A DNA stretch of 64,000 nucleotides from assembly GCA_965240465.1 (NCBI GenBank), contig OZ251219.1, positions 800,001 to 864,000 of the forward strand, written 5' to 3'. The position numbers are program-made. Numbering within the stretch: the first letter of the stretch is position 1; every line of letters starts with the position of its first letter. The DNA is from a bacterium (GTDB taxonomy: Bacteria; SAR324; JACQKK01). This document shows, piece after piece, positions 27,001 through 30,000 of this stretch.

Positions 27001-30000
27001 CCGCCCGTAGACTACTACTCCACCTCTAAAACCTGGCAATGATTGAATCATCCACCCTTGCTGCTGATAAGCTTCTTCATCTATAGGCAAGACCAGCTGC
27101 AGATTGGTCATAAATTTCTGTAGCTGATTATTTTCATTCTCTGCTAAAATGTCCGCCAAATAATCCCCGTGATTCAAAATCTTCAAGTACTGCTGGTTGG
27201 ATATCCGTCCTAAAGATTGGGTGGTCACCCCTACTACCAAGGCATGAAATACCAAAGAAGGTAGCGAAAAAGCCAAAAATGCAATCGTAAATTTGACCCT
27301 CAGCGAAGAACGAGCCAGCCAAGTGGACTTTTCCAACAAAGCCCGCACCACTAAGCGTAAGCCTAAGTAAAATAGCAGTGCAAATAGTACCGCAAATAAA
27401 AACAAAACCTGTATTTTCTGCTGAGCAGGCGATGACACCCCTAGCACATCCCCCCTAGATAATAACCACGCCAAAGCCAAGCCAGTGGATATCAAACTCA
27501 CAAATAGCAGAATGCTACTCACCTTCCCTAGCCAAGACAGCAACCGCCTACTCCCAACCAGCCACCCAGACATTATCCTCTTGGCTTCAGATCTCACTGC
27601 CATATTTCTCACATTTCTGTTACAATCATCCGATCGTGGTAATCACTAGAACCACAATCTATGGTATCAACAATCACTTTTTATAGATTACCATGAGCTA
27701 AACATTCTGGCCTCACCTACAAATTTTCGCTTTTGACACTAATCCCATAACATGGCAAACAGATGCCAACTGCTCCCGTAGTTAAACTGGATATAACGGT
27801 GGATTGCGATTCCGCTGTTCTAGGTTCGAGTCCTGGCGGGAGCATTTTTACGGGTAGTTTTCACTTTCTTTTTTCGGGGTTTTGCTAGCCAAGAGACTAA
27901 GATGCTAAATTCGTAGAGGATAGCTAGCGGCAAGGCTAGCAGCAGTTGAGTTATGGCATCGGGCGGGGTAAGAATTGCAGCTACGATGAAGGTCAGTACT
28001 AGGGCGTAGCGTCTATTTTTGGCTAGCCAGCGGGGGGTGATGAGTTTGGCTCTGGTGAGGAGTAGACTAATAAGGGGCAGTTCAAATACCAGTCCGAATA
28101 CAAATAGCAGGCGAGAGCTAAAGGAAAGGAAATCTCCTACTCTGAGGGAGGGGATGAGGTTTTCATCAAATTGTACTAGGAAATTGATGGCTTGAGGAAG
28201 GACTACTAAGTAGCAGAATAGGGCTCCGCCGACAAAGAAAGGATAAGATAGCAGCACAAAGGGCCAGATAGTGCGAGTTTCTTTTTTGAAGAGAGCAGGT
28301 TTAACAAACAGCCATATTTGCAACAGCAAAAAAGGAAAAGTGAGTAAAATAGCTGCTAAAAAAGCTGCTTTTAGGTGAGTTATAAAGGGGTCGGTGAGGG
28401 TGTCAAAATGCAGCTTTGTTTGAAAAGGTATCAGGGGTTTTTGGAGCAAGATGAGAATGTACTCGCTGAACGCCCAAGCGACAAGAAAGACCGTCGCCAC
28501 CACTGAAATGATGATAAGCAAACGTTTGCGTAGTTCACGCAGGTGTTCTATCAATGGCATGGGGGTATCGGCAGGAGGTTTTGTTGGCATGGGTCTAAGG
28601 ATTCGTGGTGAGGGAGCTGAGCCTTGCTTGTGTGTTCATTATACAAAATGTTACCTTGATATAAAGTCCTGGGGAGCAATAAATAACAGGGCAAACAGGA
28701 GAATTTCAGTTGAAGTTTTGGAAAAGAAAGCACACCTTGACAGGACTAGCCCGCACTTGTGGGTGAGCAGGAAAGCTCAGTCCGGTCGGGCTGAATGAAG
28801 TACTAGCAGAGTTATTACCCCCTAGGGCAGCAGAAGTGCTGGTTGGTTTAGCAGACCAAGATGATGCGGGGGTAGTGTATCTCAATGAGCGGCAAGCTTT
28901 AGTGCAGACTGCCGATTTTATCACTCCTCCGGTGGACGATCCCTATTTATTTGGTAAAGTGGCGGCTGCCAACGCCCTGAGTGATATCTATGCCATGGGT
29001 GCCGAGCCTCTCTGTGCCTTGAACTTGGTAAGTTTTCCAGAAGGAGTGTTGCCTCAGGCGGTTTTGAAAGATATTCTAAGGGGGTCTCTGGAACAGCTGA
29101 ATAATGCTGGTGCTTGGTTGGTAGGAGGACATTCGGTACAAGACCAAGAACCCAAATTCGGCTTGGCTGTCAGCGGTCTGGTTGACCCTAAGTGCATTTG
29201 GCGTAATCGCGGTGCCTGTCCTGCCGATGCCTTGTTACTAACCAAACCGCTAGGTAGCGGCATTCTGCTCAATGCTGCTCGTTCCAAACAGATCAGCCCA
29301 CTAGAACTCAAGCCTTGCTTGGATTCCATGCAGACCCTCAATAGCAGTGCCGCTGAAGTACTGAAGAAATTTACGGTTCATGCCTGCACCGATGTTTCGG
29401 GCTTTGGCTTAGCAGCTCACGCTTTGGAAATGGCTCGGGCCTCCAAAGTCTGTTTTCAGCTCTCATTGGCTACCATTCCACTTTTCCCTCACACCCTAAC
29501 TGCCATGGAAAAAGGTATCACCACCAAAGCCACCAACAGCAATAAACAATTCGTCAGCCCCCACCTCCAATGGAACACAAAACCACCACAACCACTGAGC
29601 GAAATCCTCTTTGATCCCCAAACCTCAGGAGGATTGCTGGCAGCCATCCCTCAACCAGAAATCTCCTCAGCTCTTAAAGAGCTCAAAAAGGTGGATGTTC
29701 TGGCATCCCAGATCGGAACCGTCACCCCGCTATCCAATAAAGATGCAATTTACTTGCTTGGTGGACCCTAGCCTCCATCTCCACTGCTACTGGCAGGTTC
29801 AGTTTCAGATCTTCTATTACCTCCAAATCTATAAGTATAACTCACTCCTAAGATAACAGCACCTGCATATCTATTATCCTCCACCGTCTCTTCAGGATAC
29901 AATTCCCATCGGGCACTGCGTAAGGCGAACCTCCAAGAACTGGCTTCGTCTATGTCCTTCTTAAACCCAAGACCAAAGTAAAGAGTACTATCTGATCCCT

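Follow-up and report, generated by a model that had tools for sequence, protein, structure and literature searches.

A tRNA-Arg(GCG) gene and the probable reading of CGN codons without inosine-34 in the SAR324 phylum

A tRNA-Arg(GCG) gene beside a histidine kinase gene

The window analysed here, 64,000 nucleotides from a SAR324 bacterium (contig OZ251219.1, positions 800,001 to 864,000), carries a 73-nt tRNA-Arg(GCG) gene at 27772..27844 on the + strand, with discriminator A and with CCA not encoded. ARAGORN bounded the tRNA-Arg(gcg) at window 27771-27845 on the + strand, and the Rfam tRNA model RF00005 matched 27772-27844 over its full length (model positions 1-71 of 71) with 58.4 bits, the gathering score being 29. 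With the Rfam cloverleaf model and the ARAGORN arginine call in agreement, this is a sound tRNA gene. The anticodon, G34-C35-G36, lies at 27806..27808 (+) as read from the sequence, and ARAGORN reports an anticodon at position 36 of 27771-27845. It sits in a loop of U32 U33 G C G A37 U38 closed by the stem GUGGA/UCCGC, and the pattern match for the anticodon arm is GGATTGCGATTCC at contig 827801-827813. The D-loop reads AACUGGAUA, with an A after G18 G19. Arginine identity in E. coli depends on A20, C35 and G36, the elements recognised by ArgRS; all three are present in this tRNA, which is predicted to be an arginine acceptor. A single-sequence minimum-free-energy fold was not a cloverleaf, yet had a z of -3.75; the covariance model does give the cloverleaf. 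The gene is identical over 73 bases to that of a congener, G001, and over 72 to that of G008.

A promoter scan beside the gene returned a single promoter-like site 145 bases upstream, no better than in shuffled sequence, and a terminator scan around the gene found none. Two open reading frames from the ORF list flank it. A sensor histidine kinase ORF of 752 aa (25354..27612, - strand) is divergent from the tRNA gene. On the other side, a TatC-like ORF of 256 aa (27820..28590, - strand) overlaps the 3' end of the tRNA gene from the opposite strand with its last 25-26 bases, stop codon included. In the other loci tested by tblastn in the same family (19 genomes, here called f1, the remaining phylum families being f2-f7), the TatC-like ORF was not adjacent to the GCG tRNA; it is context and lies outside the decoding system.

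Four arginine tRNAs and no TadA

The genome under study (G000) is a single contig of 1,599,138 bases with a marker completeness of 83.6%. ARAGORN found 45 genes on it, 44 tRNAs (tRNA-SeC included) and one tmRNA. The arginine anticodons across the whole contig are GCG, UCG, UCU and CCU only; ACG and CCG are missing, and none of the 44 tRNAs has an anticodon that begins with A. The survey's finding that GCG stands in place of ACG in this genome, and that tRNA-Arg(CCG) is lacking, is thus borne out. Codon counts from 1,061 long non-overlapping ORFs gave, per thousand codons, CGT 12.05, CGC 11.86, CGA 6.87 and CGG 6.71, close to the 6.6-12.3 recorded earlier, and all four CGN codons are in use. 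G001, also a single contig, has the same four arginine tRNAs, and this four-anticodon set with tRNA-Arg(CCG) missing is found in the small genomes G000, G001 and G008.

The survey had also claimed that TadA is absent and that the only deaminase-fold gene is of the RibD type, and both points stand, at the same coordinates. Six-frame searches with PF14437 and PF00383 gave one match each, at contig 731317-731625 and 731314-731610, respectively, in the same 163-aa ORF. This ORF scores 131.7 bits on the RibD model TIGR00326 over profile positions 1-141 of 343, short of the 156.35 set for the whole protein since the ORF has only half of the model, against 44.8 bits on the TadA model NF008113, under its cut-off of 150. 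Its top solved relatives in the PDB are RibD or RibD-like chains (91-103 bits), and no TadA chain reaches an E value of 1e-8 among them. Aligned with residues 3-158 of E. coli RibD, it shows 39% identity. The reductase half lies in another ORF (contig 309713-310375), which matches RibD residues 140-362, and RibE is matched at contig 368417-368842; with the reductase half and RibE, the remaining riboflavin pathway, both present, a RibD role is predicted for the deaminase-fold ORF. Its zinc motif, HAE ... EPCCFHGRTPPC, departs from the HAE ... PCxMC of TadA, the latter part of which Iyer et al. (2011) write as EPClMC. Searched with E. coli TadA, both the 16,341 six-frame ORFs of at least 40 aa (phmmer --max) and the contig itself (tblastn) returned the RibD-type ORF as the sole match, and the regular expression [HC]AE...PCxxC over all six-frame ORFs hit only a low-complexity repeat protein. 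Judged by profile, motif and nearest structures, the sole cytidine-deaminase-fold gene of this genome is a stand-alone RibD-type deaminase and not TadA.

With no A34 tRNA in the genome, TadA would be without a substrate, and TadA is absent. GCG and UCG tRNAs are present, ACG and tadA are absent and CGN codons are used, which is what defines TadA-less decoding by GCG and UCG. Since tRNA-Arg(ACG), tRNA-Arg(CCG) and TadA are all lacking, tRNA-Arg(GCG) and tRNA-Arg(UCG) must read the four CGN codons. From this gene content we infer which codons each tRNA would take. G34 of tRNA-Arg(GCG) would read CGC, plus CGU by G:U wobble; CGA and CGG would fall to tRNA-Arg(UCG), whose U34 is probably xm5-modified by MnmE and MnmG, both of which are found in the genome as full-length alignments (37% and 49% identity, respectively); and AGA and AGG would be read by the UCU and CCU tRNAs.

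Distribution across the phylum and proposed turnover of the GCG gene

The survey had described the trait as a feature of the family; it extends to the whole SAR324 phylum. None of 41 relatives has a TadA over the NF008113 cut-off, nor does any of 64 genomes that are at least 85% complete and cover all seven phylum families; the cut-off is a strict one, and just 6 of the 12 ringing control genomes pass it. Weaker second deaminase matches in relatives, left unclassified by the survey, are guanine-deaminase-like, RibD-like or other non-TadA proteins. Among the best sub-cut-off TadA matches, the 15 with an ORF inside the fetched loci could be classified: five are of the RibD type (134-158 bits), and the other ten score below 100 bits on TadA. 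The best match outside the RibD type, from G056, scores 154 bits on 1WKQ, the guanine deaminase of B. subtilis, in a full-length alignment, against 76 bits on E. coli TadA.

A pattern for the classic tRNA-Arg(ACG) was found in 0 of 88 phylum genomes, while the same classic pattern with GCG gave tRNA-like matches in 73 of the 88. Loosening the ACG pattern to GGAYAKARYN7TACGR brought 27 matches, spread over 22 of the 88 genomes, against 35 for its backwards control; these are chance matches, and none of the 12 of the 27 loci that were fetched holds a tRNA. Arginine sets extracted from 25 genomes contain GCG in 21, UCG in 24, CCG in 13 and ACG in none. The four without GCG (G016, G017, G044 and G060) are all incomplete genomes (82-91%), and in place of GCG, G044 has a tRNA of classic backbone whose anticodon loop counts 8 bases. 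As every family sampled shows the inosine-free state, its fixation most likely dates to the phylum's root or earlier, and not to f1.

The GCG gene of f1, including that in the window, differs in its sequence relationships from the phylum's usual GCG gene, and this is a new detail. The f1 GCG tRNAs have a mean identity of 89.6% to the f1 CCG tRNAs and of 67.4% to the GCG tRNAs of f2-f7. In a maximum-likelihood tree of 91 arginine tRNAs (73 columns, position 34 masked), all six f1 GCG rows fall on the CCU/CCG side and all 14 other GCG rows on the classic side, with a branch support of 97/99 from a run in which the bootstrap had not settled. The N-terminal part of the kinase adjoins the GCG tRNA in 10 of the 13 f1 GCG loci tested by tblastn, and the kinase gene lies beside the CCG tRNA in 0 of 8 CCG loci tested in the same way. 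The classic SAR324 GCG tRNA shares its backbone with E. coli argV, at 77% mean identity, and tRNA-Ser(GCU) is followed by the arginine tRNA in G024, G029, G031, G038, G056 and G064, the same order as in E. coli serV-argV. This backbone and gene order suggest that in f2-f7 the GCG tRNA arose by an A34-to-G34 change in place. On sequence similarity, the f1 gene is closely paralogous to tRNA-Arg(CCG), its anticodon having changed, and is not a simple A34-to-G34 descendant of ACG.

Within f1, the earlier statement that GCG occurs in every family genome searched holds for most genomes. The f1-type GCG anticodon arm was found by exact pattern in 16 of 19, G000 included, and G012, placed in f1, has a GCG tRNA of the classic type on a 3.5 kb contig; the f1-type arm was not found in G016 (82% complete) or G017 (91% complete). 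We considered whether the classic gene of G012 is a GC-rich binning contaminant and dropped the idea, as other G012 loci are equally GC-rich (61-65%). Either the replacement did not affect the whole family, then, or G012 branches early.

From the distribution and sequence relationships we infer the direction and timing of these changes. In 16 of the 19 f1 genomes, the classic GCG gene would have been replaced by a copy of a CCG/CCU-type tRNA-Arg gene that had switched its anticodon from CCG to GCG, at a new and conserved locus beside the histidine kinase gene. Subsequently, tRNA-Arg(CCG) would have gone missing as well in G000, G001 and G008, leaving two tRNAs for four CGN codons. We think it unlikely that the direction was the reverse, with the GCG gene being original and the f1 CCG genes derived from it, or that gene conversion homogenised two old genes. 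Such readings would account for f1 GCG and CCG genes that are 84-93% identical and interleaved in the tree, with no two clean clades, and an opposite switch is seen elsewhere, in the CCG tRNAs of G021, G029 and G038, which are on the classic backbone. However, the non-classic backbone carries CCG in f2 (G024) and f7 (G064, G066 and G070) and CCU in all families, and all GCG genes outside f1 have the classic backbone. The simplest reading is that the non-classic backbone was of the CCG/CCU type before f1 arose, and the presence of the CCG type in f2 and f7 thus favours the CCG-to-GCG direction.

Relation to known systems and origin of the inosine-free state

E. coli cannot live without TadA, the enzyme from which the adenine base editors were derived, and tRNA-Arg(ACG) is still given as the bacterial rule in textbooks and recent papers. 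In the canonical bacterial system, represented in E. coli by argQZYV, argX and tadA, tRNA-Arg(ACG) is converted to ICG by TadA and is accompanied by tRNA-Arg(CCG). The classic SAR324 GCG tRNA resembles this system in its argV backbone and Ser(GCU)-Arg order. Unlike it, SAR324 has a gene-encoded G34 and no deaminase, and its tRNA-Arg(UCG) would take CGA, and in G000 CGG too. Archaea, according to reviews, likewise have a G34 tRNA-Arg(GCG), no A34 tRNA and no TadA/ADAT, but G000 is a bacterium and would modify U34 with its MnmE and MnmG.

Among bacteria, the Mollicutes of the Pneumoniae group and M. pulmonis are described in the text of Yokobori et al. (2013, PMC3711424) as lacking tadA, tRNA-Arg(ACG) and tRNA-Arg(CCG), with GCG and UCG reading CGN. 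G000, G001 and G008 have the same four-anticodon arginine set as that text reports. There, as the text of PMC3711424 also sets out, the state goes with an extremely reduced genome and evolved in steps inside a class that has TadA-bearing relatives. In SAR324, by contrast, it spans a whole phylum with genome sizes of 1.5 to about 12 Mb, CCG is kept in 13 of 25 sampled genomes, and the f1 GCG gene would derive from a CCG-type gene and not from ACG. Closer parallels are the Thermotogae and Spirochaetes, whose sequenced members, in the text of Ehrlich et al. (2021, PMC8007984), all have GCG instead of ACG; like SAR324, these are whole Gram-negative phyla in which tRNA-Arg(GCG) replaces ACG. The text of Diwan and Agashe (2018, PMC6063277) further describes five major losses of TadA in which the ACG tRNA was lost too, TadA loss going together with ACG loss and 'non-target' arginine tRNAs. 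One '-proteobacteria' name printed there with no Greek letter is read here as epsilon, since gamma and delta do appear in other places of that text. The survey's view of ACG as near-universal therefore does not hold, and the Mollicutes are not the sole parallel. SAR324 is not named in the relevant passages of PMC8007984 or PMC6063277, and may be covered in their figures or supplements; a literature search for SAR324 and TadA listed nothing but the papers of an author called Tada.

Our own scan of the collection with one strict pattern gave at least 120 GCG loci, and the 80 listed with titles include Patescibacteria, Chloroflexota, Planctomycetota, Campylobacterota, Spirochaetes, Thermotogaceae and SAR324. 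It recovered GCG tRNAs of Treponema, Spirochaetaceae, Thermotogaceae and Campylobacterota, and the genomes tested had no TadA over the cut-off.

We regard it as very probable that the full explanation is the following: a functional tRNA-Arg(GCG) and inosine-free arginine decoding throughout the phylum, with the GCG gene of f1 having been replaced. That TadA was lost in SAR324, as opposed to never having been present, we assume from the reconstruction in the text of Diwan and Agashe (PMC6063277). The state could instead be old. We consider it improbable that a G34 tRNA-Arg without TadA is a widespread, possibly ancestral bacterial state, with TadA and ACG having come later and SAR324 having kept the old system, and somewhat more improbable still that SAR324 never had TadA, its G34 tRNA-Arg being the ancestral bacterial/archaeal state kept here and in other GCG phyla. 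Iyer et al. (2011) take G34 for C-ending codons as ancestral and TadA as having arisen within Bacteria. Very similar GCG backbones occur, among the matches listed, in Patescibacteria, Chloroflexota, Thermotogaceae, Spirochaetes, Campylobacterota, Planctomycetota and SAR324, the GCG tRNA of G070 is 96% identical to two from Saccharibacteria, and none of the 6 GCG-bearing genomes tested outside SAR324 has a TadA over the cut-off. However, the tRNA-Arg backbone is highly conserved anyway, so that high identity says little for a shared origin. NCBI puts SAR324 among the delta/epsilon proteobacterial groups. Most of their relatives have TadA and ACG, which counts against a lineage that never had the enzyme. 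The Planctomycetota are mixed, with four matches in 151 genomes (three ACG and one GCG) by a 32-base pattern too strict for proportions. In the text of PMC6063277, TadA is reconstructed at the bacterial root and its absences are treated as losses.

It is very unlikely that TadA, tRNA-Arg(ACG) or both are present but were missed, owing to an incomplete assembly or to an enzyme too divergent for the models. Marker completeness is indeed below 85% in G000 despite its single contig, and NF008113 misses half of the ringing controls. Against this, the four arginine tRNAs are the same in G000 and G001, each of which is a single contig, no A34 tRNA of any kind was found in G000, leaving a TadA without a tRNA substrate, sensitive searches with E. 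coli TadA reach only the RibD-type ORF, and the result is the same in the 64 (TadA) and 88 (ACG) phylum genomes. Least probable of all is a rare giving-up of inosine decoding at the level of one family, paralleled by the Mollicutes alone, which would fit the GCG tRNA of most f1 genomes but not the phylum-wide distribution, the published texts on Thermotogae, Spirochaetes and further TadA losses, or the GCG loci of many phyla in our scan.

It is an established principle that bacteria without A34 tRNAs are also without TadA, and the SAR324 result leaves it unchanged. The feature is real; the decoding strategy was already known, and what is new is its occurrence in SAR324. The SAR324 cluster joins the lineages that live without inosine-34, and such lineages are numerous. 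In f1, the apparent replacement of the GCG gene by an anticodon-switched CCG paralogue would be a clear natural case of isoacceptor tRNA turnover. For annotation, a missing tadA is no sign of an incomplete genome in TadA-less groups. The finding also bears on models of codon usage and tRNA adaptation for marine metagenomes, and on the question of when TadA arose.

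The tRNA-Arg(GCG) gene and arginine decoding

ARAGORN places a tRNA-Arg with anticodon GCG at positions 27771–27845 of the window (+), and the Rfam tRNA model matches 27772–27844 with 58.4 bits (gathering score 29), so the gene named in the survey is real. In the sequence, GCUCCCG/CGGGAGC forms the acceptor stem and GUGGA/UCCGC the anticodon stem; the loop reads U32 U33 G34 C35 G36 A37 U38, with the anticodon at 27806–27808. The discriminator is A, and CCA is absent from the gene. On the opposite strand, the final 25–26 bases of a TatC-like ORF, including its stop codon, overlap the 3′ end of the tRNA (27820–27845); TatC was not found beside the GCG tRNA in the other loci tested from the same family (f1, one of seven in the SAR324 phylum).

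The genome is one contig of 1,599,138 bases (45.4% G+C). It and its congener are small (1.6–1.7 Mb, one contig each), the remaining f1 genomes having 2.3–5.2 Mb. An ARAGORN listing of the whole contig gave one tmRNA and 44 tRNAs, one of them tRNA-SeC. The arginine anticodons are GCG, UCG, UCU and CCU; ACG, CCG and any anticodon starting with A are absent from the 44, confirming that both tRNA-Arg(ACG) and tRNA-Arg(CCG) are missing. All four CGN codons are in use, as reported, at 12.05 (CGT), 11.86 (CGC), 6.87 (CGA) and 6.71 (CGG) per thousand in 1,061 long ORFs, and all four must therefore be read. From this gene set we infer codon reading by standard wobble rules: tRNA-Arg(GCG) would read CGC and CGU, tRNA-Arg(UCG) would read CGA and CGG, and the UCU and CCU tRNAs would read AGR. 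tRNA-Arg(UCG) would be the sole CGG reader here and in two relatives without CCG, G001 (the congener) and G008. MnmE and MnmG, both present full length, probably modify its U34.

Other observations concern the same contig. A SelD-like ORF at window 28656–29771 (+), listed from 28836, extends upstream through an in-frame TGA at 28764–28766. With TGA read as selenocysteine, the stretch ...LARTCGUAGKLSP... resembles what we take to be the SelD active-site motif, and this reading agrees with the tRNA-SeC at contig 118512–118610. Short tandem peptide repeats occur in a 290 aa frame at window 58724–59593 (+; HAESHAESHTESHAES) and, as an insertion, in a 406 aa ORF at contig 730069–731289 (fetched locus L002:256–1476; THCTDTHCTDTHCTD), by eye a putative homoserine O-acetyltransferase.

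TadA and tRNA-Arg(ACG) across SAR324

Six-frame searches of the genome with two deaminase models returned one match each, PF14437 at contig 731317–731625 and PF00383 at 731314–731610, both in a 163 aa ORF (731296–731787) with the motif HAE ... EPCCFHGRTPPC. On RibD TIGR00326 this ORF scores 131.7 bits, over the deaminase half; its score on TadA NF008113 is 44.8 bits, where the cut-off is 150 bits. Among solved structures its best matches are RibD chains (91–103 bits), with no TadA chain attaining E 1e-8, and it is 39% identical to residues 3–158 of E. coli RibD. Since the RibD reductase half is a separate ORF (contig 309713–310375) and RibE is also present, the predicted role of this RibD-type protein is the ordinary one in riboflavin synthesis. 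Relatives in f1 and f2 likewise have the deaminase as a separate ORF (145–185 aa), and the matches in f4, f6 and f7 fall within ORFs of 329–398 aa, consistent with fused RibD. As an independent check, the TadA sequence annotated in E. coli K-12 was compared with 16,341 six-frame ORFs (phmmer --max) and with the contig (tblastn); its only significant match was the RibD-type ORF. Profile scores, solved relatives and these searches thus agree with the survey that TadA is absent and that the sole deaminase-fold gene is RibD-type.

The survey described a family-level loss; the observed distribution covers the whole phylum. TadA was above cut-off in none of 41 relatives from f1 and f2, and in none of the 64 SAR324 genomes of at least 85% completeness (seven families, one class). 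Among the best sub-cut-off TadA matches, which include weaker second hits previously left unclassified, we classified the 15 with ORFs inside fetched loci. Stand-alone deaminases of the RibD type account for five (134–158 bits on TIGR00326), and the other ten score below 100 bits on TadA, aligning mostly to its N-terminal core. The best of these ten (G056, 96.9 bits) aligns along its full length with the guanine deaminase 1WKQ of B. subtilis at 154 bits, compared with 76 bits for E. coli TadA; by eye, the G052, G053 and G027 proteins carry the same motifs.

A covariance model built from 23 arginine tRNAs was used to collect the arginine tRNA genes of 24 further genomes, typed by ARAGORN. Counting the genome studied, GCG is present in 21 of 25, UCG in 24, CCG in 13 and ACG in none; the four genomes in which no GCG was found, G016, G017, G044 and G060, are 82–91% complete. 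The D-arm of the classic backbone, the usual bacterial tRNA-Arg type, occurs in exact patterns with ACG in 0 of 88 SAR324 genomes and with GCG in 75, 73 of which have one of two ARAGORN-verified tRNA forms. A looser ACG pattern gave 27 matches, which we rejected as ACG tRNAs: the backwards control gives 35, and 12 fetched loci contained no tRNA. In G044 (86% complete, 5 contigs), where neither GCG nor a normal UCU tRNA was found, a tRNA of classic Arg(GCG)-type backbone at G044:C3:726437–726512 (L290:1499–1576, minus) has eight bases in its anticodon loop (UUUCUGAA) and is assigned no identity by ARAGORN. The extra length may stem from an indel that assembly introduced into a T run, or the tRNA may be an unusual one.

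Origin of the f1 tRNA-Arg(GCG) gene

The GCG tRNAs of f2–f7 have the classic backbone (GCACCCGUAGCUCAGCUGGAUAGAGC...UUGCGG...), and E. coli argV(ACG) is 77% identical to the classic SAR324 GCG tRNAs on average. In six SAR324 genomes tRNA-Ser(GCU) lies immediately before the GCG gene, the same Ser-Arg order as serV then argV(ACG) in E. coli. The GCG tRNA of the window and those in 16 of 19 f1 genomes have a different backbone (GCUCCCGUAGUUAAACUGGAUAUAAC...), common to CCG and CCU tRNAs; f1 GCG tRNAs have a mean identity of 89.6% to f1 CCG tRNAs vs. 67.4% to their GCG counterparts in the other families. A maximum-likelihood tree was built from 91 arginine tRNAs of 21 genomes (73 columns, position 34 masked, bootstrap not settled). 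In it, a branch supported at 97/99 splits a CCU/CCG-type group, holding all six f1 GCG rows, from a classic group into which the remaining 14 GCG rows all fall. One and the same histidine kinase gene adjoins the f1 GCG tRNA at 10 of 13 loci tested, and none of eight CCG loci tested.

Because the same non-classic backbone carries CCG in f2 (G024) and f7, the direction of change was likely from CCG to GCG, in which case f1 would have lost the classic GCG gene. G012, a genome placed in f1, has a classic-type tRNA-Arg(GCG) beside tRNA-Leu(GAG); its sampled loci (L323, L327, L331, L334, L338, L340) have 61–65% G+C vs. 45% in the genome studied. Three f2 genomes, G021 (L289), G029 (L301) and G038 (L102), carry tRNA-Arg(CCG) on the classic backbone, and in G021 its acceptor and T arm are common with the GCG tRNA. 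Judged from these tRNA sequences, anticodon switching between GCG and CCG seems to have run both ways in SAR324.

Relation to other bacteria

The missing parts described in the survey (TadA, ACG, CCG) stand, and its scope and the supposed rarity of the trait do not. A named genome collection, scanned for the classic Arg D-arm followed by UGCG, yielded at least 120 loci; ARAGORN called tRNA-Arg(GCG) in 119 of the 120 matches listed. The 80 titled matches listed comprise Saccharibacteria (24 loci), other Patescibacteria (12), Campylobacterota (11), Spirochaetes (10), Chloroflexota (6), Planctomycetota (3), SAR324 (3), Thermotogaceae (2), labelled proteobacteria (2), Candidatus Chaera renei (1) and unlabelled entries (6). 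TadA was above cut-off in none of ten genomes behind listed GCG loci (three SAR324, one 'proteobacterium', six others), and its model had no match at all in Campylobacter, Treponema, Thermotogaceae and Saccharimonadales genomes with such loci. A GCG-bearing Planctomycetota genome gave a 56-bit match in a 403 aa ORF, and a Chloroflexia genome an unclassified 79.5-bit match, below the cut-off of 150.

Losses of TadA or inosine have also been published. Ehrlich et al. 2021 (PMC8007984) state that GCG replaces ACG in every sequenced member of the Thermotogae and Spirochaetes. The text of Yokobori et al. 2013 (PMC3711424) describes the Mollicutes case. That of Diwan and Agashe 2018 (PMC6063277), surveying 1,093 bacteria, places TadA at the bacterial root, compares five TadA-losing clades and names inosine losses in Spirochaetes and a proteobacterial class. 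Taking this root reconstruction as given, SAR324 would have lost TadA; that the phylum never had the enzyme and retained a G34 state is improbable. NCBI files SAR324 under Deltaproteobacteria incertae sedis. No paper linking SAR324 to TadA was found in a literature search that covered article text. SAR324 is a new lineage for a known decoding strategy, and the probable CCG-type origin of the f1 GCG gene is, as far as can be told, a new detail, a small twist on it.
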